From positions 2,532,391 through 2,596,390 of the forward strand of contig OY970330.1 of the NCBI GenBank assembly GCA_963717295.1: a stretch of 64,000 nucleotides of DNA, in the 5' to 3' direction. Positions 4,091 through 64,000 of this stretch are shown here, piece after piece. Both the position numbers and the translations under genes were made by a program. The notes beneath the pieces were generated by a model. That model had not been told where the DNA came from, did no database searches, and was given only the letters and a program-made list of their open reading frames with translations. The number at the start of each line of letters is the position of its first letter. The stretch's first letter is position 1. This stretch comes from Thermoanaerobaculaceae bacterium. Its GTDB lineage: Bacteria > Acidobacteriota > Thermoanaerobaculia > Multivoradales > UBA5704.

Positions 4091-4671
4091 GCTTCCTCCT
4101 CCTCGCCGAGCAGCCGGCGCAGACGCTCCTTGGCGCGGGCATAGTGGACTCGCGCACTGCCCACCGAGATCGCCAGGGCCGTTGCGGCGGCTTCAATCGT
4201 CATCTCGTGTTGCAGGCGCAGCTCGATCACTTCGCGCTGGCGCCGGGGCAGGAGGGCCAGGGCGGCGTCGAGACGCCCCAGACGGTTGGAGGGAACGTCC
4301 GGATCGAGCGGCCCGGCGCTGCCCGAGCCTCTCCCATCCTCGGTGCGCCTCCAGAGTTCCAGCCACCGCCCCTGGAACGCGCGCCTCCTCCTCTGCTCGG
4401 AGGCGGTGCGGCGGATCACCCCGAAGAGGAAGGTCTTGAAGCTCGACCGGCCCTCGAATCGGGCTCGACCCTCCAGCAGCTTGAGATAGGACGCTTGCAA
4501 CACCTCTTCGGCCTCCTCTCGATCGCGCCGGCAACAGGAGAGCGCCCAGCTGAAACTGGCGGGATGGAGCCGCTCGAGCTCCTGGGCAAGATCCTGTTCG
4601 GTCATCGGTTGTATCGCCCGGCTCCAGGCGTTCCGTTCACTGTGTGGAGCATCTTCCCAGTTATATGACAC
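4087..4671 (-). CDS. ECF-type RNA polymerase sigma factor
   Basis: Region 2-like FKTFLFGVIRR and a region 4 HTH (LPRRQREVIELRLQHEMTIEAAATALAISVGSARVHYARAKERL). The start is either GTG 4671 or the internal ATG 4605 (MTEQDL). Confidence 0.8.
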   Translation of the reverse strand: MSYNWEDAPHSERNAWSRAIQPMTEQDLAQELERLHPASFSWALSCCRRDREEAEEVLQASYLKLLEGRARFEGRSSFKTFLFGVIRRTASEQRRRRAFQGRWLELWRRTEDGRGSGSAGPLDPDVPSNRLGRLDAALALLPRRQREVIELRLQHEMTIEAAATALAISVGSARVHYARAKERLRRLLGEEEEA

Positions 4672-33599: not shown

Positions 33600-35609
<2,010 letters not shown>

Positions 35610-35627
35610 TCAGGCTCTCTTCATCGC

Positions 35628-35712
35628 TTCCCTACGCTGGCATTACCCAGGTCAGGTGATGAGGGTCGTCCCCGCAACGGGACTCTCAGCCTTGGCGGCC
35701 CCCCTAGCTGGC
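35628..35712 (-). promoter_or_regulatory. TPP (THI-box) riboswitch, thiC leader
   Basis: Minus strand: GGGGGGCCGCCAAGGCUGAGAGUCCCGUUGCGGGGACGACCCUCAUCACCUGACCUGGGUAAUGCCAGCGUAGGGAA. It carries the CUGAGA and ACCUGA..CUGG.UAAUGCCAGCG signatures, about 110 nt upstream of the thiC ATG. Confidence 0.9.
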
Positions 35713-35768
35713 AGGGATGATCGTACACGGTTTGGGAGGGCGAGGTGTAGGAGGGCGGCAATCGAGGT

Positions 35769-52716: not shown

Positions 52717-53469
52717 CTACGAGCGCGGATGGAACTTGTCGTAAAGGGATTTCAAGCGGGCCTGATGGATGTGGGTGTAAATCTGAGTGGTCGAGATGTC
52801 GGTGTGGCCGAGCATGGTCTGCACGGCGCGCAGGTCGGCGCCGTGCTCCAGCAGGTGGGTGGCGAAGCTGTGGCGCAGCACGTGCGGAGAGAGCGGGGCG
52901 CGGATGCCCGCTTTGAGGCCGTGCGCCTTGATGATGCGCCAGAAGCCGCTGCGCGACATCGGCTCGCCGAAGCGGTTCAGGAAGACCATGGGATGGCGTC
53001 CCGTCCCCAGCGTCGGGCGCACCTCGGACATATAGCGGCGGGTCCAGTGCTCGGCCTGCTCCCCCACCGGCACCACCCGCTCCTTGTTGCCCTTGCCGAA
53101 GGCCACGAGAAAGCCGACGTCCAGGCGGAGCTGCGACAGGGTAAGCCCCACGAGCTCGCTCACCCGCAGGCCGGCGGCGTAAAGCATTTCGAACATGGCG
53201 CGGTCGCGCACGCCGATGGGCGTCGAGAGGTCCGGTGTCGCCAGCAGGGCCTCCACCTCGTCCTCGGAGAGCACCTTGGGCAGCGGCTTGTTGAGCTTGG
53301 GCGGGAGGAGGTTGACGGCCGGGTTGTCCGCCCGCTCCTTGAGCGTCACCTGGTTCTCGTAGAAGCCGCGGATGGCGGAGAGGGCGCGGGCGCTGGAGCG
53401 CGGCGAGAGGCCCTGCTGCTGGAGACCGCGCATGTGGGCCGAGAGGTCGGAGGCGGCCGCCGTCAGCAT
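52717..53469 (-). CDS. xerD: tyrosine recombinase XerD (annotated from first in-frame ATG; true N-terminus probably upstream, see findings)
   Basis: Catalytic C-terminus (RHSFATHLLEHGADLRAVQTMLGHTDISTTQIYTHI). The in-frame upstream sequence (ALDRYLESLAVERGLSQNTVASYRNDL) is clearly the XerD N-domain, but it has no ATG/GTG/TTG before the stop at 53722. Confidence 0.8.
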   Translation of the reverse strand: MLTAAASDLSAHMRGLQQQGLSPRSSARALSAIRGFYENQVTLKERADNPAVNLLPPKLNKPLPKVLSEDEVEALLATPDLSTPIGVRDRAMFEMLYAAGLRVSELVGLTLSQLRLDVGFLVAFGKGNKERVVPVGEQAEHWTRRYMSEVRPTLGTGRHPMVFLNRFGEPMSRSGFWRIIKAHGLKAGIRAPLSPHVLRHSFATHLLEHGADLRAVQTMLGHTDISTTQIYTHIHQARLKSLYDKFHPRS

Positions 53470-53611
53470 GTCGGCGCCGCCCCTTTTCGCCAGCCACTCG
53501 CCGAGGCGCGCGAGGTCGTTGCGGTAGCTGGCGACGGTGTTCTGGGAGAGGCCGCGCTCGACCGCCAGGCTTTCCAGGTAGCGGTCGAGGGCGCGGCGCC
53601 AGGGGGGACGC

Positions 53612-54874
53612 TCACGAGGCCACGGGCGTCCGCGGTCCCACGCCGTGCTCGGCGCAGATATCCAGGATCTCCGTCTCTTCGAGAGTGGCGCTCGAGGACT
53701 TCGCCTTCTGGAAGATCGCCTTCACCAGCGCCTCCGCCGGCTCGATACCCCGCTCCTTGAGCCAGTAGACGACGTTCGACTCGCCGCTCATGGGACCCAC
53801 TTCGATCATCTGACGGCTGCCGATGAGGGAGGCGGGGATCGAGGAGTAGACGCGGTCGGCCAGCCAGTCCTCGCCGCGGGCGCGGGCCTTGATGATGGCC
53901 GAGGCGTGAACGCCGGTGCCGGTGCGGAAGGCGTCCTTCCCCACCACGGGGTAGTTGTCCGGCAGGGGCACGCCCGTCGTGTCCGCCACCAGGCGGCAAT
54001 ACTCCTGGAGGCGGCTCAGGTCGCGGTCGATCCAGCCCAGGAGCTGCATGTTCACGAGCAGAATGTCGATGGGGCAGTTGCCCACCCGCTCGCCGATCCC
54101 CACGGCCGTGCCGTGCAGACGGTCCGCGCCGGCCTCGGCGGCGGCGAGGGCGTTGATCACCGAGAGCCCCCGGTCCTTGTGGCCGTGCCAGTCCACCTTC
54201 ACGTCCTCGCCGGTCGCGTCCACCACCTCACGGATGAACTTGATGAGGTGGCGCACGCCCGTGGGGGTCGCATGCCCCACGGTGTCGGCCACGCAGACCC
54301 GGCGGGCACCGGCTTCGATGGCCGTAGTGTAGAGCTGCCGCAGGTCCTCGGGGGCCGCGCGGGTGGTGTCCTCGGTGACGAACATCACCGGCAGCCCTTC
54401 CTTGACGGCGAACTCCACGGCCTCGCGGCTGAGGCGGAGCATACGGTCGAGCGTCCAGCCTTCGGCGTACTGGCGGATGGGCGAGGAGCCGATGAAGCAG
54501 GCCGCCTCAATGGCGATGCCGGTGCGCTGGGAGATCTCGGCGATGGGTTGCACGTCGGCGATCACCGTGCGGGCGGCACAGTTGGGAGCGATCTTCAGCC
54601 GCTGCTCCACGATCTCCCGCGCCAGCCGCTCCACGTCGCGCACCACGTGCGGCCCCGCGCCGGGCAGGCCGATGTTGGCCGACTCGATCCCCAGCGCCGC
54701 GATCAGGTGGAGGATCTTGAGCTTGTCCTCGATCGGCGGGTTGCGTACGGAAGGCGACTGCAAGCCGTCGCGCAGGGTCTCGTCGTCCAGCTCGACCTTG
54801 GCGCGGGCGGGCCGGATGTCCCCCTCGCCAATGCGGTTCCAGTCGTAGATCAGCTCGGATTCCGTGGGATTCAT
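53612..54874 (-). CDS. 2-isopropylmalate/homocitrate synthase-family enzyme (DRE-TIM metallolyase, short form without LeuA regulatory domain)
   Basis: DETLRDGLQS signature and WHGHKDRGL metal-binding motif. At 420 aa it has no C-terminal allosteric domain. Confidence 0.75.
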   Translation of the reverse strand: MNPTESELIYDWNRIGEGDIRPARAKVELDDETLRDGLQSPSVRNPPIEDKLKILHLIAALGIESANIGLPGAGPHVVRDVERLAREIVEQRLKIAPNCAARTVIADVQPIAEISQRTGIAIEAACFIGSSPIRQYAEGWTLDRMLRLSREAVEFAVKEGLPVMFVTEDTTRAAPEDLRQLYTTAIEAGARRVCVADTVGHATPTGVRHLIKFIREVVDATGEDVKVDWHGHKDRGLSVINALAAAEAGADRLHGTAVGIGERVGNCPIDILLVNMQLLGWIDRDLSRLQEYCRLVADTTGVPLPDNYPVVGKDAFRTGTGVHASAIIKARARGEDWLADRVYSSIPASLIGSRQMIEVGPMSGESNVVYWLKERGIEPAEALVKAIFQKAKSSSATLEETEILDICAEHGVGPRTPVAS

Positions 54875-54875
54875 C

Positions 54876-55982
54876 TCAGCGTCCTCCCGAAGCCGCCACC
54901 GCCCGCCCGGCCGCCTTGGCCAGCAGATCGCCCACCTGCGAGGTGGTCAGCGTGCCGCCGAGGTCGGGGGTGGATTGCCCCTCGCGCATGGAGCGCGCGA
55001 CGGCGTCCTCGATCGTCTTCGCGGCTTCGGCGTGGCCCAGGTAGTCGAGCATCAGCGACGCCGAAAGGATGGCGCCGACGGGGTTGGCCCTGCCGGTGCC
55101 CGCGTACTTGGGCGCCGAGCCGTGGACGGGCTCGAACATGGAGGTCTGGCCGGGGTGGAGGTTGGCCGAGCCGGCGACGCCCAGGCCGCCCTGGAGGGCC
55201 GCGCCGAGGTCGGTGATGATGTCGCCGAACATGTTGTTGGTGACGATCACGTCGAGACTCTCGGGGTGCTTGACCATCTGCATGGTCAGCGCGTCCACGA
55301 ACATGTGGCGCGACTGAATCTGGGGAAACTCCGCCGCGATCTCGGCGAAGGCCCGCTGCCAGAGGTCGTGGCCGTAGCGCATGACGTTGGACTTGTCGGC
55401 CATCAGCACCTCGCGGCGCTTGTGGTCCACGGCGTACTCGAAGGCGGCGCGGATGATGCGCTCGACTCCTTTGCGGGTATGAATCTCGTCCTGAATGGCG
55501 ATCTCGTCCGGCGTGCCCTTCTTGAAGTTGCCGCCGACGTTGACGTAGGCGCCTTCCGTGTTCTCGCGGAAGATCACCATGTCCACGTCCTTCTCCGTCC
55601 TGTCCTTGAGCGGGCAGAGGCGGGCGTCGTAGAGCTTCACGGGGCGCAGGTTGATATAGAGGTCGAGGCCGAAGCGGATGCCGAGCAGGATGTCCGCGGC
55701 GTGCTTCATGTCGGGCACGCGGGGGTCGCCATAGGCGCCGATGAAGACGGCCGAGTAGTTCTCCCGGAAGTCGTCCAGCGCTCCCTTGGGGAGGGTTTCG
55801 CCGGTGGCGAGGTAGCGGTCGGCGTCCCAGTCGAAATGGACCAGCTCCAGGGGGAGATCCCAGGATTCGGCGGCGGCTTCGAGCACCTTGACGGCCTCGG
55901 CGGTGACGTCCTTGCCCGTGCCGTCGCCGGGCAGTATCGCGATGCGTTGAGGGCGGCGTTGAGAGGGGGGAATCGAGCTCAT
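54876..55982 (-). CDS. isopropylmalate/tartrate dehydrogenase-family enzyme
   Basis: ILPGDGTGKDV, NLRPVK, NMFGDIITDLGAALQGGLG and HGSAPKYAG motifs. The gene lies 1 nt upstream of the synthase gene. Confidence 0.8.
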   Translation of the reverse strand: MSSIPPSQRRPQRIAILPGDGTGKDVTAEAVKVLEAAAESWDLPLELVHFDWDADRYLATGETLPKGALDDFRENYSAVFIGAYGDPRVPDMKHAADILLGIRFGLDLYINLRPVKLYDARLCPLKDRTEKDVDMVIFRENTEGAYVNVGGNFKKGTPDEIAIQDEIHTRKGVERIIRAAFEYAVDHKRREVLMADKSNVMRYGHDLWQRAFAEIAAEFPQIQSRHMFVDALTMQMVKHPESLDVIVTNNMFGDIITDLGAALQGGLGVAGSANLHPGQTSMFEPVHGSAPKYAGTGRANPVGAILSASLMLDYLGHAEAAKTIEDAVARSMREGQSTPDLGGTLTTSQVGDLLAKAAGRAVAASGGR

Positions 55983-56945: not shown

Positions 56946-57010
56946 CCCCGCCCGGGCATAAATGCCAGGGCTATGAGCTGCGCCCCCTGAAGGGGACTTA
57001 GAAGCCGGAT
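56946..57010. repeat. truncated copy of family-A palindromic element
   Basis: CCCCGCCCGGGCATAAATGCCAGGGCTATGAGCTGCGCCCCCTGAAGGGGACTTAGAAGCCGGATT matches 38987..39052 at about 90% by eye. The right inverted arm is absent. It abuts the low-GC islet. Confidence 0.8.
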
Positions 57011-57083
57011 TCCGGGTGTAGCCGCACCCGCCAATACGTCATCCTTACATCACCTCCTACTGAGCCGCCCAACGCTCCTCACT

Positions 57084-58256
57084 TCACAGGTGCGGATCGT
57101 TCGGTGGAAGTGCCGGGTTCGCCGGTGAAGGTCGCCCTGTGACATGTTTCTGCATCTCTGCACCTGGCACTGCAGAAATGCTGCTGCCGACAGTAGGGGC
57201 TTGATCGACTTGCGGTTCCCTCTCATCAAAGCCCAGATTGAAGCAGGTAGCAGAACAGCGCACGGTGCCGTCCTCCTTTTTAGTCCTGGCTGCAGTGAGC
57301 TTCCAAGTCCTCTCGTCTTCGCGAGACAGCTCACATGACGGCGAACGACCAGCATAATGGGTCATTAGAGTCAGAACGCAGAAATCGCGCTTCGTCTCCT
57401 CACTGGATCGGTAGCCACGCTGGGCTTTAGAATCGGAAGAAGAAATGGTTTTAAGATTAACTACATCTCTTGACACAACTCGAGCACCCAACCTGAGTTC
57501 GAGATCTCGCCGCAACTCTGCTACAGTCTGCGGATACGGCCTATCGATTGGAGGAAGGTTTATATCTAAAGAACCCTCTGAGGTGTCAATACCAATCTCG
57601 GTCCGCTTGTAAGAAGTCTCGAAGCCCTTGGCTGCGACTGCTTCAGCGCGAATGCAGCGAATTGTGATTTGGCCCTGGTCGACCTTGATAGCGAGAGGCT
57701 TTCCAGATGAGACCTGATCTCCTGCCACAGAGCAACTGGCTGCACCCTCGAAGGTAATAGTCTTGAGTGTTATGGGGTCGCTGCCTTTTCGCCTTATTGA
57801 GAATCCGAGAAGTCGCCCGTCAAGATCACTGGCAGCGATCTCGACATTCTTCTCGGCAAGGAGTTGACACTGATTCCACGCAGTCAACGCTTCGGCCGAA
57901 AGAAGGCTGAGGCGAGAAGCCTCCATTTCCCTTCCTTGGCTGCTATCAGCCTGCTTGCGGCAGAATTCTACTCGATCCGCCTGGGAGGCGAACCAGTCAC
58001 CTGCAATCCCGATTGGCACCGGTGACTTAAGACCAACTTGGCCATTATGCGAAAACGACCAAGAATTATCAGTCTTCCTGCAGTGCTGATGAAAGATTAA
58101 ATTATTCCATTCTTTCTGTGAAATGGCGCTCCATTCGTTTCGGATTCCGTGACTCAGGAGCGCATTGCAGTGCTCTTGGGCTGCCGCCTCAAAGGGCGCC
58201 AATGCATATGTAAGCACCACAAGAGCGAGATGAACCGCAGCTCTTCGCATTTTCAT
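57084..58256 (-). CDS. orphan secreted protein in a low-GC islet
   Basis: 390 aa, GAGGGAGG RBS, signal peptide MKMRRAAVHLALVVLTYALAPFEAAAQ, several Cys residues. Codon usage and GC clearly differ from the flanks. I recognise no family. Confidence 0.6.
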   Translation of the reverse strand: MKMRRAAVHLALVVLTYALAPFEAAAQEHCNALLSHGIRNEWSAISQKEWNNLIFHQHCRKTDNSWSFSHNGQVGLKSPVPIGIAGDWFASQADRVEFCRKQADSSQGREMEASRLSLLSAEALTAWNQCQLLAEKNVEIAASDLDGRLLGFSIRRKGSDPITLKTITFEGAASCSVAGDQVSSGKPLAIKVDQGQITIRCIRAEAVAAKGFETSYKRTEIGIDTSEGSLDINLPPIDRPYPQTVAELRRDLELRLGARVVSRDVVNLKTISSSDSKAQRGYRSSEETKRDFCVLTLMTHYAGRSPSCELSREDERTWKLTAARTKKEDGTVRCSATCFNLGFDEREPQVDQAPTVGSSISAVPGAEMQKHVTGRPSPANPALPPNDPHL

Positions 58257-58748
58257 GTTTGTGCCTCCCTCGATTTTATGTATACCTGGTTAGGACTGAC
58301 GGCGAATCTCAAGATCAACTGTATCCGGCTGTTCGTCAAACGCCTTCCCGACAGTCGCTACTCGTGCTCAGACTATCGGCGGAAAGATGTATGCCATTAA
58401 TTCTATGAAACATATATACGCTACACCGGTTCCCTACTCCTCGTCAATATCGGTGTACTGCCGGGTTGGGAGCCTGTCGCGCGGAATCGTCCCAAGATAA
58501 CCAGACCGGCTTCCGGTGGCCTATCCTTCCTCTGCCGAAGCAGACTACCGCTGCTGGAACTCCGGCGGTCTCAAGAGCATGCCGACCACTTCCTGGGCCG
58601 GCATCGGCGCGCCTTGCCGCCCGTCTTGGCAGCGGCGGCGAGCAGGCCGAGGATCGCGACGTCCTGATCCGCGTTTCCCTTCGGACAGCAGGAGCGGCGG
58701 GTAGACCTGCATCGCCTCCTGCCAGGACCGCGGCGGCCGGGGTACGGG

Positions 58749-59426
58749 CTATGCCCAGGACAGGCCCCCAGGGAGTTGTGCAGCACTATATTCAAAGTGC
58801 AGGACTCTCCGCCTGCCAGGAGTCACAGCCGGGCTGGACGCATGAAGAAGAAGTGGGCTCATCAGCATCGCCGCACCGGCCGACACGGCGCAAAGCGTTT
58901 CGGTTAGCTCTCCGCGGAGCGAAGCGATCGTCGACTCCGAAAGCCGGCCGAGCCTGTGGGTTCCAGGAAGCACTCGCAGGGCCCCGTTGGTGGGTGGCGT
59001 GTCGTCGAGGTGCAGCCGGATGGCCAGGATGGTTCCGAGAATGGAGACCGGGGATTGAACGTACGGCACTCCATCCTTGACGGTCCACGGCCCAAATCCC
59101 TCGACTCCCTGGCGGTGGGTCACGGCGATCGTGAGATCCTGGTGCCAGGGAACCTTCCAGTTCGCCTGCGGTGTCTTGTCGAACACCGTCAGCTTGATTG
59201 GCCTTGCAGCAGGACCGAGGAACTTTTCGGCTAGCCGAGCGGGCTCGCCCGTGGTTGCCAGCTTGCAGAGCTTCGCGGACTTGCCAAGTACGTTGCGGAC
59301 GCCGGCACCGCCAGGCGCGGCCGCGAGAAGCTTATCGACCTCAGCCCTGAGCTCGACCAGATCAGAGTCGGGCACCAACTGGTCGACAATGGCGAATCCG
59401 AAGATCCCGAGGTCTTCGTGCAGCAT
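58749..59426 (-). CDS. phytanoyl-CoA dioxygenase (PhyH) family Fe(II)/2-oxoglutarate oxygenase
   Basis: VPWHQDL (HxD) and LRVLPGTHRLG (distal His), with RRRVLHFEY near the C-terminus. Confidence 0.75.
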   Translation of the reverse strand: MLHEDLGIFGFAIVDQLVPDSDLVELRAEVDKLLAAAPGGAGVRNVLGKSAKLCKLATTGEPARLAEKFLGPAARPIKLTVFDKTPQANWKVPWHQDLTIAVTHRQGVEGFGPWTVKDGVPYVQSPVSILGTILAIRLHLDDTPPTNGALRVLPGTHRLGRLSESTIASLRGELTETLCAVSAGAAMLMSPLLLHASSPAVTPGRRRVLHFEYSAAQLPGGLSWA

Positions 59427-59581
59427 CTTGGAATCAGCTCCACAATTCAGGTACCGTCCCTGATCCTACTACCCTCCAACCGCCGGCCGCGCTCCTCACG
59501 CGGTAGCCGGTCAGTTCCAATGCCTTGTTAGGCCGCAGCGCGCGGGAGGCAGTTGATGACTCGCGACGACGTTGGTGTTAC

Positions 59582-59838
59582 GCCGGCCCAAGGGGCCGTG
59601 ATTCCTAAGCCCAGGCCAACGGCCTGGGTTTGGAGATGATCCGCAGATGCGGCCTGAAGGGTCGCGATACCCCATCGACGTCGAGTCGTCCGCTATGACG
59701 AGCAGTAGATCTGGGATGAGGCAGAGGTCCGTGGTGCGGGGGCCAATTATCGCGCCCCGTTGGGGCGCCCTGTCCGGTAAGGGCCTGCATACCCAGGCCG
59801 TTGGCCTGGGCTGAGGGATCACGGGCCCTTGGCCCGGC
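59582..59838. mobile_element. MITE-like element: 48-bp imperfect terminal inverted repeats around a 161-bp core
   Basis: 59582..59629 matches the reverse complement of 59791..59838 at 44 of 48 positions. Each arm contains a CCCAGGCC(A/G)(A/T)(C/T)GGCCTGGG hairpin. There is no internal ORF. Confidence 0.65.
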
Positions 59839-60103
59839 TTGGCGGTCAGGTTGTCCCATGACGTAGGCATCGAAGAGAGGGGATCGAAGGGAGAGGAGAA
59901 TGTCAAAGGTGCTTGCTGACAGGCTTGATCACCACCCGACTCCCCCAGCAGGATACGTCACCGTACTTACGGTGGGGACTACTAAGGGGTGGAGACATCG
60001 TAGAGGCGCTCCTTCCGCTGGAAATTGCCGCAAGGAACGGGCGAGGGGCCAGGCGCGCCGCCGGCGCACGAACGACATAGAATTCCTGAAGAAAGGTGCT
60101 TCC

Positions 60104-60375
60104 ATGGCTCAGGTCGTCTTCGAATTTCCCCCCACCGTCTTTTCGGCCCTGCGTAAAGCCCCGAGGAGTTCGCCACCGAGATGAAGCTGGCGGCGGCGAT
60201 CCATTGGTACTCTCAGGGACTGGTCTCCCAGGGCAAGGCAGCCGAGATCGCGGGGGTGAGTCGCGCTGATTTCCTGGAAGAGCTGTTCCAGCGAAAGATT
60301 CCCGCCGTCCAGGTCTCGATCGAAGAGCTTCGCGAGGAGCTTCGGCGTGGCGAGGCCCTCCCGCCTATCGGATAG
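60104..60375 (+). pseudogene. UPF0175-family antitoxin, apparently split by a 1-nt frameshift; no toxin partner
   Basis: MAQVVFEFPPTVFSALRKAP (ATG 60104) runs into a stop at 60182. EEFATEMKLAAAIHWYSQGLVSQGKAAEIAGVSRADFLEEL... continues in another frame (ATG 60181). One extra G at ~60163 would fuse them into a ~90-aa UPF0175-like protein. Confidence 0.5.
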
Positions 60376-60482
60376 CCCAGAACCTCACCCACGGTGACCC
60401 CGGTTTTGCCTCGACAGACGTCCGACGCCACGCTGCAAGGCGAGGCCCCTGCAACCCGCCTAGCCAAGATCGCAGAGCCCAG

Positions 60483-60952
60483 CTTCGGCCAGGAGCCGCA
60501 AATATTCCAAAAATTGCCGCAAACATCCAACGGCCCAAGGTTCCCGACGAAAAAGCAGCCGCAACTACCTCACCAAAAGCCGCAAATACTCGGGCCCCAA
60601 CGGTCTAAGTCGCAAATTATGTCGCAAATAGCGGACGAGCAGCGGTCGCCATGAGAGCAGCCGCAGCCACTACCGGAAGATTTGCGGCTTCTTGCGACCT
60701 ATTTGCGGCTGCTTCGCTCCAATTTGCGGCTACTCATCCACCATTTGCGGCTGCTCGCCTATTATTTGCGTCTATTCGTCGGCCGGCGATGCTTGCTTGT
60801 TGGCCATTTGCGGCTGCTCGTGAGGCAGCTGCGGCTGCTCTCGCTTGAGCATTCATTGCTCTTGTGGCATTTGCGGCTGCTGGCCCTCCAGTTGCGTCTT
60901 CTCTAGTGGATTTTGCGGCTGCTGGAGGGCTATTTGCGGCTTCTGGCAGGGA
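60483..60952. repeat. 21-bp-phased ATTTGCGGCTGCT repeat array in two inverted arms (iteron/centromere-like)
   Basis: The right arm has 13 consecutive 21-nt units starting at 60680 (core present in 11). The left arm has 7 units on the opposite strand, with cores ending at 60503, 60524, 60566, 60587 and 60629, plus an off-phase copy at 60609..60617. A ~50-bp centre separates the arms. Confidence 0.85.
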
Positions 60953-61032
60953 GGTCGCGACTTTCGTCCGCAGAGAACGCATCCGCCGAGATCCGGCGGT
61001 TTCAGGTAGGATTTCCCCCAGGTCGAACCTCT

Positions 61033-64000
61033 ATGCGCCTCCCTCTCCGCACAAGGCTCCCATGTCTCCTCGCCTGGGTCCTCCTGCTCGCCTTTGCGAC
61101 CGGCGGGACGGCGCTCTTCGCTTCCGGCGAGGAGCGCGGATTTCCCCTCATTCAGGCGTACGACCCGGGTCTTCCGGATGCCGAGACCCAGAACTTCGCC
61201 ATCGCGCGCGATCCCCGGGGCTTCGTCTACGTAGGCAACGGCCGCGGCGTCCTGGTCTATGACGGCGCCTGGTGGCGGCTGATCCCGATCGGCAAGGCGA
61301 AGACGGTCTTCTCTCTCGCCAGCGATGCGCGGGGACGGATCGGCGTCGGCGGCGACGACGAGCTTGGCTACCTGGCTCCCGACGGCGGCGGCAGCCTGCG
61401 CTACGTCTCGCTCGTGGGACAGCTCCCTGCCGGCCAGCGGGCGTTTGGACAGGTTCTGCGGACGGCGGCCACGGAGACGGGTTTCGCCTTCATCACCACG
61501 CGGTGGCTCTTCCTTTGGGATGGCGCCCGGATGATCACCGCGGCCACGTTCCCCGGCGACCGGCCGTACGCGGTGATCTTTCCCATGGACGACGCCGTCC
61601 TCGCCTGGACCCGCGCCGGGATCGCCCGCCTGAAAGGCACCCGGCTCGAACCCGTGCCGGGCGGCGAGGTGTTTCGCGACCGGCGGGTCGATCTCATCCT
61701 CCCCGCCCCCTCGGCCGGCAGCGGGCTGCTCGTCTCCGTCCGCGGCGAAGGGCTCTTCCTTCTCAAGGACGGACAGGCGCGGCCGTTCGCCGCCGCGGCG
61801 TCACGGTGGGCCGCCGAGAAGAAGCTCCTGGAAGGCGTCCGGCTACCCGACGGCCGGTGGGCCCTGGGCTCGATCCTCGGCGGCGTGCTCCTGCTGCGGC
61901 CCGACGGCACGGTGGATCAGGTGATCGACACCTCGGTCGGCCTGGCGGACAACTTCGTGAACGGCGCGATCGTCGATCGCGAAGGCTCGCTGTGGCTGGC
62001 TTTGAACAACGGTCTCGCACGGATCGAGGTCGCTTCTCCGCTCTCGGTCATCGACCGCCGGTCCGGGCTGGAGGGGAGCGTCTACGCGGTGACCCGCCAT
62101 CTCGGAAAGCTTTGGGCCGCCACCGCCGCCGGTCTATTCACCACCGAGGGCACCGAGCGCGCCGCGGACGACCCCAAGACGCCGGAATGGGGGCTTCCGG
62201 TTCGACTGCGAGCCGTGCCCGGGCCTCCCCCCTCGGTGTGGAGCCTGCTGTCCGTGGACCAGGATCTTCTGGTGGGAACGGCTTACGGCCCTTATCTGGT
62301 CCGTGGCACCACGGCCCAGGCGTTGGCCGGCGTCGGCCAGAAGACCGTGTTCGTCCTGACGCGCTCGCGCCGGAACCCGGACCGCGTCTGGGTGGGAACC
62401 TCGGAAGGGCTCGGCGCCCTTCGGCGTGATGGAGCGGAGTGGCGATTCGAAGGCATGGTCCCCGGAATGACTCAGGACATCCGCTCGATCGAGGAAGGCG
62501 AGAACGGAGTCCTCTGGTGCGCGACGCGGCTCGACGGACTGTGGCGAGTCGAGCTCGACTCCCGCACCCTGGATCGGCCTGCACGGTTGCTCCAGGTCCC
62601 CGGAGGAGACGGCGTTCATCTGAACCGAATCGGCAGCCACATCCTGGCGGCGACCGGCGAGAAGGTGCTGCGGCTCGACGAGACGAAAGGCCGGCTCGTG
62701 GACGACCCCAGCCTCGCCGGCATGCACGGCAAGGTCAACTCTCTCGCCGAGGACGCCGCCGGCAACGTCTGGATGGCCTCTCGCCAGCCGGCCCTCGCCC
62801 TGCGCCAGGGGGTGGGATGGGCGGCCGAGCCGCGCTCGCTCGTCGAGGTGCCGGGGCATTCCGTGCTGGCGATCGTCACCGAGCCGGACGGCGTCGTCTG
62901 GCTGTGCGGCGACGACGGGCTGTATCGCTACGCCGGCACCTCCCACCTTAACGCTCAGGCCCTGCCGGCTCCGCCCCTCGCCCAGGTGACGTCCAGCGGC
63001 GACAAGCTCCTCTTCGGCGGCGCCCCCGGCGTCGCTCCGAAGGCCGTGGACCTGCCGCCCTACCTGCGGCGCCTGCGCATCGAGTTCGCGCCTCTCTCCT
63101 TCCGCGCCGGCCTGCGCTTCCAGACCCGGCTCGAGCCGATCGACGCCGGCTGGAGCGGTCCCACGGCGGAGCCTTTCGCCGAGCTGACGCGGCTGCCTCC
63201 AGGCGCGTACACCTTCCACGTGCGCACCTCGGGGCCGAGCGGCGAGGTCGGGCCGGCGACGTCATGGTCGTTTCGCGTCCTCTCGCCCTGGTATCAGACG
63301 CGGTGGGCCCTCGCCGGCTGGATCGCCCTCGCGATCGCCGCCCTCACCGGCTACGCCCGCCTGCGCGGCCGCGCCCTGCGTCAGCGGGCGGTACGGCTGG
63401 AGGCCCGGGTCGCCGAGCAGACGGTCGAGCTGCGCAACACGGTCGAGGAGCTCCAGCACGCTCACGCCGGGCTGGCCTCGGCGAACGCCCGGCTGGAGGA
63501 GCTGTCGCTGCGCGACGAGCTCACCGGCCTCGCCAACCGCCGGCACCTCAAGCAGGTGCTGGAGGCGGAGTGGGACCGCTCCCAGCGGCAGGGGGCGCCG
63601 CTCGGCTTCATCCTCCTGGATCTCGATTTCTTCAAGCGGCTGAACGACACCCGCGGCCACCGCGAGGGGGACCGCTGCCTCCAGGCTGTATCCCGCCACC
63701 TCGCCGAGGCGCTGAAGCGGCCGGGCGATCTGGCGGCCCGCTACGGCGGCGAGGAGCTGGCGGTGCTGCTCCCCTACACCGATCTGAAGGGCGCCCTGGA
63801 GGTGGCCGAGCAGCTCCGCGACGGCATCGAGCGGCTGGCGATCCCTCACGAAGCCGCGCCGCTGGGCCATGTCACCGCCAGCTTCGGCGTTGCCACCGTG
63901 ATCCCGGCTCCCGGCCAGGAGCCGGGGGTCCTCATCGAGGCCGCGGACCTCGCCCTCTACCGGGCCAAGACGGCGGGAAGGAACCGGGTCCGGGCCGCCG
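61033..64000 (+). CDS. sensor diguanylate cyclase: periplasmic beta-propeller (Reg_prop-like) + Y_Y_Y + TM + coiled coil + GGDEF, 3'-partial
   Basis: Frame 1 is open from ATG 61033 to the window end, so it is absent from the ORF track. Signal peptide, TM helix WALAGWIALAIAALTGY, and a GGDEF domain (DELTGLANRR ... RYGGEELAVLLP ... LYRAKTAGRNRV). The active-site motif reads GGEEL. Confidence 0.8.
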   Translation, partial: MRLPLRTRLPCLLAWVLLLAFATGGTALFASGEERGFPLIQAYDPGLPDAETQNFAIARDPRGFVYVGNGRGVLVYDGAWWRLIPIGKAKTVFSLASDARGRIGVGGDDELGYLAPDGGGSLRYVSLVGQLPAGQRAFGQVLRTAATETGFAFITTRWLFLWDGARMITAATFPGDRPYAVIFPMDDAVLAWTRAGIARLKGTRLEPVPGGEVFRDRRVDLILPAPSAGSGLLVSVRGEGLFLLKDGQARPFAAAASRWAAEKKLLEGVRLPDGRWALGSILGGVLLLRPDGTVDQVIDTSVGLADNFVNGAIVDREGSLWLALNNGLARIEVASPLSVIDRRSGLEGSVYAVTRHLGKLWAATAAGLFTTEGTERAADDPKTPEWGLPVRLRAVPGPPPSVWSLLSVDQDLLVGTAYGPYLVRGTTAQALAGVGQKTVFVLTRSRRNPDRVWVGTSEGLGALRRDGAEWRFEGMVPGMTQDIRSIEEGENGVLWCATRLDGLWRVELDSRTLDRPARLLQVPGGDGVHLNRIGSHILAATGEKVLRLDETKGRLVDDPSLAGMHGKVNSLAEDAAGNVWMASRQPALALRQGVGWAAEPRSLVEVPGHSVLAIVTEPDGVVWLCGDDGLYRYAGTSHLNAQALPAPPLAQVTSSGDKLLFGGAPGVAPKAVDLPPYLRRLRIEFAPLSFRAGLRFQTRLEPIDAGWSGPTAEPFAELTRLPPGAYTFHVRTSGPSGEVGPATSWSFRVLSPWYQTRWALAGWIALAIAALTGYARLRGRALRQRAVRLEARVAEQTVELRNTVEELQHAHAGLASANARLEELSLRDELTGLANRRHLKQVLEAEWDRSQRQGAPLGFILLDLDFFKRLNDTRGHREGDRCLQAVSRHLAEALKRPGDLAARYGGEELAVLLPYTDLKGALEVAEQLRDGIERLAIPHEAAPLGHVTASFGVATVIPAPGQEPGVLIEAADLALYRAKTAGRNRVRAA

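Follow-up and report, generated by a model that had tools for sequence, protein, structure and literature searches.

Tandem sites repeated at about two turns of the DNA helix are found in plasmid iterons (the seven 22-bp iterons of the R6K gamma origin, RK2 oriV, and P1 incC/incA), and comparable layouts occur in the type II and Ib plasmid centromeres (R1 parC, with 2 x 5 11-bp repeats around a promoter, and pSK41 parC, with 4 x 20-bp repeats) and in AraC and LytTR operators (araI1-I2 half-sites 21 bp apart; AgrA and ComE sites with 9-bp repeats and 12-bp spacers). We analysed a 64,000-nucleotide stretch of the genome of a soil acidobacterium, a Thermoanaerobaculaceae bacterium (contig OY970330.1, positions 2,532,391 to 2,596,390; hereafter the window), in which a 21-bp-phased repeat array in two inverted arms, here called the W-type module, lies upstream of a gene encoding a Reg_prop/Y_Y_Y/GGDEF diguanylate cyclase. 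The module recurs beside unrelated genes, and we tentatively read it as a platform for a putative sequence-specific DNA-binding protein. The closest documented geometry is that of phosphorylated BvgA (BvgA~P) at the Bordetella Pptx and Pfha promoters, where dimers are spaced 22 bp apart along one face of the helix, directly upstream of the promoter, up to six of them at Pptx, and where phase matters (deletions in 22-bp steps preserved it) (PMC7250471).

The likeness to BvgA would lie in protein units placed every two helical turns on one face of the DNA, upstream of a promoter, binding being a prediction in the case of the W-type module. The two differ in that BvgA occupies three to six dimer sites made of inverted heptads, whereas the module offers 13 plus about seven asymmetric 13-bp sites in two opposed arms, and in that the module recurs at unrelated genes. 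Iterons share with it the back-to-back direct repeats of ~21-22 bp, in which a conserved core is joined to a variable part, often together with bent DNA and nearby inverted copies, and the right arm (13 x 21 bp) lies within the ~17-22-bp range of tandem, helically phased iterons. The module differs from iterons in its chromosomal housekeeping setting, its larger number of sites and its lack of plasmid similarity: no Rep family was identified by Pfam among the window neighbours or in the flanks of the other copies, the DnaA box TTWTNCACA has no match in the 64 kb, no AT-rich unwinding element was found (AT-richness is highest in a 16-nt run of the left arm), and blastn searches against 72,556 plasmids and 50,697 phages gave no match. 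Centromeres of the parC kind likewise have two phased repeat blocks flanking a short core, cooperatively coated by a small DNA-binding protein, but they consist of direct repeats only, placed directly ahead of parM/parR, whereas the arms of the module are inverted and no parA/parM plus parR/parG/parB operon is linked to it in any of the five genomic contexts described below. AraC and LytTR operators resemble it in their asymmetric, monomer-read sites directly repeated at 21-bp spacing; they comprise two, rarely three repeats, their motifs are unrelated to that of the module, and no AraC or LytTR gene lies nearby.

The array is real, and its anatomy is close to that first proposed from the letters of the sequence (the sequence-only reading). 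The right arm is composed of 13 contiguous 21-bp units on the + strand (starts at 60680 + 21k, k = 0 to 12; span 60680-60952), placed exactly as claimed from 60680 to 60932; 11 of them fit ATTTGCGGCTGCT with at most three mismatches, and the two degenerate units (60785 and 60848) keep the phase and are degenerate at the matching positions in homologous copies. The left arm (60491-60637) had been described as seven units on the opposite strand, of which five stand as clear minus-strand cores in phase (ends at 60503, 60524, 60566, 60587 and 60629), the other two slots (60533-60553 and 60596-60616) being in phase but degenerate; two further core copies (60606-60617 and 60656-60668) are out of phase. 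The innermost in-phase cores of the two arms are 50 bp apart and the arms are directed outwards, in agreement with the ~50-bp centre of the sequence-only reading, and the 21-bp register is maintained across 24 slots. Two other points of that reading were also borne out, the low GC content of the segment (56% in the array, 67% upstream) and its position ahead of the cyclase gene, the array ending at 60952, 80 bp before the GGDEF start codon (ATG, 61033). Occurrences of the 13-mer with up to two mismatches are concentrated in the array (12 there and two elsewhere in the 64 kb), compared with a mean of 1.5 in whole-window shuffles, none of which reached 14; counts of TTTGCGGC are 11 in the array and one outside. 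The self-identity of the right arm at lags of 21, 42 and 63 is 0.56, 0.59 and 0.56 (median of 500 shuffles 0.27, maximum 0.40), and Tandem Repeats Finder calls a period of 21/42 in the array. A position weight matrix describes a contiguous, asymmetric 13-bp motif of ~20 bits (sum of the per-position values), which is the size of a protein footprint.

Homologous modules were found at other loci. A scan of 241 million metagenome records with an exact pattern of two in-phase cores returned 72 matching stretches, seven of which are W-type modules with the two-armed layout on high-GC contigs, representing five distinct loci; the low-GC metagenome and viral matches to the same pattern are unrelated Arg/Lys-rich coding repeats. 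An nhmmer profile built from four homologues gave full-length matches (about 455-490 bp) in the window and in loci L258/L253, L234, L240 and L216/L209, each of the two pairs being one locus recovered from two samples. Aligned in the 21-bp register, the copies match one unit after another, the degenerate ones among them, and match also in the stretches of the left arm outside the repeats. Their flanks are unrelated: Reg_prop-GGDEF and UPF0175 genes in the window, FHA-GGDEF and proline dehydrogenase genes in L258, a Ser/Thr kinase gene and a 168-aa open reading frame (ORF) in L216, and a gene for a TPR protein in L240. Judged from these alignments, the W-type module is a member of a conserved family. 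L258 is assigned to the class Thermoanaerobaculia (Acidobacteriota), as is the window, by the names carried by homologous proteins. The AAGGAGG ribosome-binding site of the 168-aa ORF directly adjoins the last unit of L216, so that this arm must contain the promoter or the leader of that gene; the ORF matches no Pfam family and encodes a coiled coil at its N-terminus and a basic C-terminus. In this distant copy, at 4266-4496 and 4623-4650, a perfect 12-bp palindrome, GTGAACGTTCAC, alternates with the 9-bp core. GGDEF genes are neighbours at two of the ~10 array loci, and an association of the arrays with such genes was rejected, being not significant once the seed locus was excluded.

The comparison of these copies points to selection on both the motif and its spacing. 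Between the window and L258 the cores of the right arm are 86% identical and the spacers 49% (about 0.15 and 0.85 substitutions per site), and between the window and L234 the values are 78% and 37% (0.26 and 1.37 substitutions per site), the cores evolving about 5-fold more slowly than the spacers. Only three gaps, of 1, 2 and 21 nt, were needed to align the four lineages over 273 + 189 (462) bases. Slow cores next to spacers that are near saturation and almost free of small indels indicate selection on the motif and on the exact 21-bp spacing alike, in an old and stable structure; within one array the spacers are mutually unrelated and the units are not homogenised. L240 lacks exactly one unit, a loss expected from unequal exchange in any case and therefore no evidence by itself, the evidence being the scarcity of small indels. 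Spacing that is exact to the base pair points to a DNA duplex read on one helical face and not to a flexible RNA, and the geometry of the sequence-only reading (a 21-bp period on one helical face, outward arms, non-coding) was upheld.

Neither of the two alternatives that the sequence-only reading had itself raised, a conserved heptad-repeat protein and a generic repetitive extragenic palindrome (REP), was encountered. No open frame runs through the array, since all six window frames have at least one stop in the right arm, and no frame is open across the window, L258, L234, L240 and L216, among which the stops are shifted. A coding repeat was considered in view of the TTG/CTG, CGG/CGT and CTG/CTT/CTA variants, synonymous in an LRLL frame in phase with the GGDEF ORF, and rejected: that frame meets a TAG at 60904, and the conserved AT before TTG has the wrong third-position bias for a genome of ~87% GC3, the signal being at the nucleotide and not at the codon level. 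The core is not scattered within the 64 kb, the part of the 8.78-Mb genome covered by the REP and mobile-repeat counts given above.

The position of the module relative to promoters was examined in the window and in L258. In L258 and three array-less orthologues a conserved block lies ~35-40 nt upstream of the FHA-GGDEF start, and in our reading of the alignment it has the promoter-like form TTGACG-N18-TAnnCT; a strict consensus promoter scan did not call this L258 block. The L258 module lies about 165 bp further upstream, which would place it upstream of the promoter of that gene and not in its leader, and in the window the module ends where a block conserved in array-less relatives begins. 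With respect to both blocks the module thus has the layout of a phased array, with sites separated by integral helical turns (21 bp) immediately upstream of a putative promoter. The last unit and the tail that follows it (window ~60936-60962; L258 5736-5762) can form a hairpin followed by CTTTCGTC, with a terminator-like call in L258 only. Curvature was predicted with a wedge model, and all of the following values depend on the Bolshoy-Trifonov parameters assumed for it. In each of the four homologues the model gives the left arm a strong bend, of 63-101 degrees over ~95 bp (background mean 27, 99th percentile 67), whereas the right arm is at background (30 degrees, 39th percentile), so curvature alone cannot explain the main array.

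The orthologous Reg_prop-GGDEF locus was compared in eight relatives, six close (82-86% amino-acid identity) and two distant (63-65%), and the presence of the module is patchy. There is no array at the orthologous site in four of the close relatives (L277, L281, L282 and L288) or in the two distant ones (L278 and L279). Compared with L277, the window has a 942-bp insertion made up of a UPF0175 pseudogene and the module, and L288 and L281 have a palindromic miniature inverted-repeat transposable element (MITE) at or near this insertion point. The L258 module is missing from the Pro_dh/FHA-GGDEF spacer in three relatives, L285-L287 (83-85% identity). The two other close relatives carry different 21-bp arrays: about 30-39 units in L276 (5127-5945), of the TTGYGAGGTCRCAAYNCCNGA, then CAATNCCGCAAAGAGTGCTCT, then GACCTCCC type, and 14 units of CATCCTTCCCGCTGGAAGAAC in L280 (2108-2401), both with palindromic cores (TTGTGAGCTCACAA and TTCCCGCGGGAA), whereas the window core is asymmetric. 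All the arrays at the GGDEF site terminate just upstream of a shared conserved block, GCGGTTTCAGGTAGGATT. In the period-blind sequence (the window and the eight orthologous loci) the period is 21, or a multiple of 21, in all tandem arrays of more than five units, and the only other arrays are two short ones with a 10-bp period (4.5-5 copies). Other Thermoanaerobaculia genomes supplied four more 21-bp arrays (L042, L065, L071 and L078), which adjoin unrelated housekeeping genes; these were retrieved with a 21-bp-specific pattern, and their period is consequently not independent evidence. A three-unit pattern (TTGCGGC-N14 x3) run over genomes recovered at least five Thermoanaerobaculia arrays, most of the matches listed being coding heptad repeats from other phyla. 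Another Thermoanaerobaculia genome (L073, 6285-6949) shows a higher-order repeat of 104-105 bp (5 x 21) in 6.4 copies.

Our favoured reading, to which we give a little less than an even chance, is that the module is a same-face, cooperative binding platform for a putative sequence-specific DNA-binding protein, upstream of promoters. As a non-coding, cis-acting element of ~480 bp it would take up many copies of one protein on its 13-bp cores, one protein unit per 21 bp on one helical face, forming two opposed, polar, cooperative arrays (13 sites on the right, about five to seven on the left) that would flank the short centre, next to the left arm and its predicted intrinsic bend. It would most likely modulate transcription or local DNA architecture at the promoter region of the cyclase, a periplasmic-sensor enzyme. 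We infer all three components of this reading, namely the protein binding, its cooperativity on one face and the adjacent promoter as the target. A single native 12-mer in the window, AAATTGCCGCAA, also counts for a binding platform, as it is identical to the left-arm unit at 60511-60522 and is kept in array-less relatives; TTGCSGCAA occurs in the window at this site and in the array and nowhere else, and the site is possibly an ordinary single operator for the same predicted protein. The sequence-only reading had offered, as one option, an operator array for a DNA-binding protein controlling the cyclase; the operator part of that proposal fits the pattern of selection, whereas no such protein was identified and, since the module adjoins unrelated genes elsewhere, it is only weakly linked to the cyclase in particular.

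Several observations weigh against this reading. No gene is common to the flanks of the five copies, and no protein emerged as the cognate binder. Absence of the module from the orthologous sites of L277, L281, L282, L288 and L285-L287 shows that it is dispensable, and the different 21-bp arrays carried by the sister strains L276 and L280 at the same site are awkward for one regulator of this gene. The arm that faces the downstream gene varies (the long arm in the window, the short arm in L258 and L216), and a simple consensus scan found no promoter inside or beside the module. To our knowledge, twenty-odd sites is several-fold above any known operator array. The missing binder, the dispensability and portability of the module, and the unlike arrays of the sister strains are the reasons why our confidence stays below even. 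The element belongs to no described family, and mechanistically looks like an extreme, portable variant of phased binding-site arrays. Three other readings, in which the module is a mobile element, an RNA or a structural DNA, are less probable.

The first of these, unlikely but the strongest of the rivals, is that the module is a non-autonomous mobile or recombining element of the MITE kind, whose arms would offer multiple sites to a trans-acting transposase or recombinase, lodged in intergenic hot spots with an incidental effect on the cyclase. It would account for the same order of units beside unrelated genes at five loci, for the two independent loci where a strain has the module and its close relatives have none, for the palindromic MITE of L288 and L281 at the same insertion point upstream of the GGDEF gene, and for the location of the window module in a hot spot of variable cargo. 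The inverted arms also resemble the ends of Tn7 and Mu-type elements, which have inverted arms with repeated sub-terminal sites, and the module shares with bacterial interspersed mosaic elements (BIMEs) and REP clusters, pneumococcal BOX elements and MITEs a non-coding, intergenic location and sub-repeats, as well as a MITE-type site in the sister strains. It differs from these modular repeats in that its units are not hairpins, it is not dispersed in the 64 kb, and its copy number is low, with a single copy in the 64 kb and five distinct loci from the 241 million metagenome records (two-unit exact pattern). By inspection, neither a terminal inverted repeat nor a target-site duplication was seen at its boundaries with respect to L258 and the empty L277 site, and the right end has a unique tail of 40 bp. 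No transposase lies near the window module or the homologous copies, and the divergence of the spacers between copies (~0.85-1.4 substitutions per site) indicates old elements and not recent bursts.

Less probable is an RNA, in which one or both arms would be transcribed outwards as a long 5' leader or a sponge-like non-coding RNA whose AUUUGCGGCUGCU repeats bind an RNA-binding protein or pair with another RNA. Outward transcription would give the same sense motif from both arms, each copy has one outward-pointing neighbour gene, and the L216 arm that abuts the AAGGAGG site must hold a promoter or leader. The sense strand of the right arm folds somewhat better than shuffles (z = -2.55; antisense z = +0.25), and the hairpin at its end, with the terminator-like call in L258, is conserved between the window and L258. 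Sponge RNAs such as CsrB and RsmZ are comparable in having many copies of a short motif within a few hundred nucleotides and a terminal hairpin, but their motifs lie in hairpin loops at irregular spacing, whereas the spacing here is exact to the base and one arm is inverted. No Rfam 15 family matched (best matches 8-17 bits, thresholds 40-100), and when four sequences were folded jointly over the left arm and centre, covariation gave little support on either strand, with terms of only -0.9 and -1.9 kcal/mol. The promoter-like block of L258 lies between the module and the gene, the centre, where the promoter would be expected, is poorly conserved (about 40%) and had no promoter called in it, and the near-absence of small indels in saturated spacers suits helically phased double-stranded DNA and not a flexible sponge.

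Slightly less probable again is that the module acts as structural DNA with no dedicated protein, a 21-bp repeat summing static bends in phase so that curved or supercoil-trapping DNA is selected or tolerated upstream of promoters. Three sequence-unrelated arrays at one site, all with a period of exactly 21 bp, speak for it, as does the strong curvature predicted by the wedge model for the left arm and for the L276, L280, L042 and L078 arrays (77-109 degrees per ~95 bp, top 0.4% of background). The right arm, which is the main array, shows no such curvature, ~20 bits of conserved core beside free spacers are not explained by curvature alone, and the model rests on assumed parameters.

A neutral minisatellite, a functionless by-product of slippage or unequal crossing-over, appears improbable. 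The presence, absence and sequence turnover of arrays at the same site in sister strains, the higher-order periods of 42, 63 and 84 bp in the arrays of L276 and L280, of the kind that unequal exchange typically leaves, and the single missing unit of L240 are in keeping with such a process, but the W-type units are not homogenised, their order and number are kept across lineages saturated in the spacers, and the slow cores and rare small indels described above do not fit a neutral repeat. Finally, the other option of the sequence-only reading, that the array is a relic or active iteron origin, or a parC/parS-like centromere, of an integrated plasmid or phage, is very improbable, not supported and already largely refuted, as the iteron-like phased direct repeats, inverted second arm, predicted adjacent bend, lower GC content and orphan antitoxin neighbour are set against the lack of a DnaA box and of any plasmid or phage match, the absence by Pfam of rep, par or mob genes within ~15 kb and of rep, par, mob or integrase cargo beside any of the five copies, the housekeeping flanks (leuA/leuB-like and proline dehydrogenase genes) in syntenic chromosomal DNA, and a sole window integrase (52717-53721) that is XerC/D-like and has an integrase at the same place in three array-less or differently arrayed relatives (L276, L281 and L282).

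Other candidates were considered and set aside. A CRISPR array does not fit (13-nt core and 8-nt spacer, against repeats of 23-47 nt with spacers of similar length), nor does an inverton, the orientation of the centre being constant in all copies and in two samples of one locus. UPF0175 was rejected as the cognate protein, since its ORF carries a frameshift here and no UPF0175 gene accompanies the other copies. Sigma-54 and sigma-70 promoters within the units were rejected because the spacings are unfit and the scan found none, and GC skew, which tracks gene orientation here, was uninformative as a marker of origin or terminus. The complement of the core, AGCAGCCGC (for example at 60701-60713), equals what we take to be a conserved string of the 16S rRNA 530 loop in the region of the 515F primer; this 9-nt complementarity (p ~0.06 by our own estimate) was taken as chance.

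The features of the locus are listed in Table 1. The neighbours named by the sequence-only reading (a broken UPF0175 antitoxin, a MITE and a low-GC islet) are present. The MITE-like inverted repeat lies at 59582-59838, with 54-nt inverted arms that are 89% complementary, and it contains the end of a contig from an independent Logan assembly that matches 56959-59609 at 100% identity. A C-run near 60160 carries a 1-nt shift that puts the first ~26 codons of the UPF0175 ORF in another frame from the rest, and the ORF is not followed by a PIN toxin gene; L288 has an intact UPF0175 of 87 aa. Pfam searches of the neighbours to ~15 kb identified DUF2071, an isopropylmalate-type dehydrogenase, an HMGL-like synthase, a Ser/Thr kinase, a sigma-54 activator, PhyH and the frameshifted UPF0175. 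The interval between the DUF2071 and GGDEF genes (56971-60995 in the window; also in L276, L277, L280, L281, L282 and L288) is a cargo hot spot with syntenic flanks, and its content varies with the relative (HXXEE, DUF1800, GAF-GGDEF, PhyH, small ORFs or repeat elements). Within it the window has, at 57084-58256 on the minus strand, a 390-aa ORF (~54% GC) that begins like a signal peptide and matches no Pfam family, and of which an identical copy exists in one other public assembly. Elsewhere in the window there is a thiamine pyrophosphate (TPP) riboswitch (RF00059, 64.7 bits; 35612-35715, minus strand) upstream of the ORF at 33600-35609, and ARAGORN calls a tRNA-Ser(GGA) at 54956-55033 (+) that overlaps the 3' end of the opposite-strand Iso_dh ORF and is probably a false positive.

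Table 1 Coordinates, strand and description of the W-type module and of the neighbouring features in the window.
Feature	Position	Strand	Description
Complete W-type module	60491..60975	+	Extent given by the nhmmer profile from four homologues
Left arm	60491..60637	-	Seven 21-bp slots: five ATTTGCGGCTGCT-like cores, two degenerate; A-tract-rich; strong curvature predicted
Centre between arms	60638..60679		One out-of-phase core-like copy (60656-60668); 74% conserved with respect to L258, about 40% with respect to L234/L240
Right arm	60680..60952	+	13 x 21 bp: 13-nt core A[T/G]TTGCGGCT[G]CT and 8-nt unconstrained spacer
Unique module tail (GGTCGCGACTTTCGTCCGCAGAG...)	60953..60992	+	Conserved in L258; hairpin-capable with the last unit
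Promoter-proximal block (GCGGTTTCAGGTAGGATTTCCCCCAGGTCGA...)	60996..61032	+	Conserved in relatives with and without arrays; arrays stop just upstream
Reg_prop/Y_Y_Y/GGDEF diguanylate cyclase gene	61033..63999	+	Runs off the window; signal-peptide-like N-terminus
Insertion relative to the orthologous L277 site	60054..60995		UPF0175 pseudogene and module
UPF0175 antitoxin-like ORF	60103..60375	+	Frameshifted near 60160; not part of the module at other loci
Single-copy native site AAATTGCCGCAA	60022..60033	+	Identical to left-arm unit 60511-60522; also in array-less L277 and L288

Extending the favoured reading from this locus to the class is more speculative, and we consider it less likely than not. 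Thermoanaerobaculia may possess a new class of low-copy cis-elements, intergenic, ~0.3-0.8 kb long and built on a strict 21-bp lattice, that would nucleate long, polar filaments of a sequence-specific DNA-binding protein upstream of promoters and be gained, lost or swapped between sister strains as exchangeable regulatory cassettes, the W-type module being their best-conserved member. Should a protein in fact coat the lattice, it would exceed in size all natural phased binding arrays so far described from bacterial chromosomes, and it would show that an array of this kind need not be a fixed part of one promoter or replicon but can be a portable module. For annotation, the locus is a warning that iteron-like repeats on a chromosome need not mark integrated plasmids. 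The sister strains, which have no array, the W-type array or one of two other 21-bp arrays before the same diguanylate cyclase gene, amount to a natural experiment, and their variation makes an effect of such arrays on the expression of a cyclic di-GMP gene directly testable.

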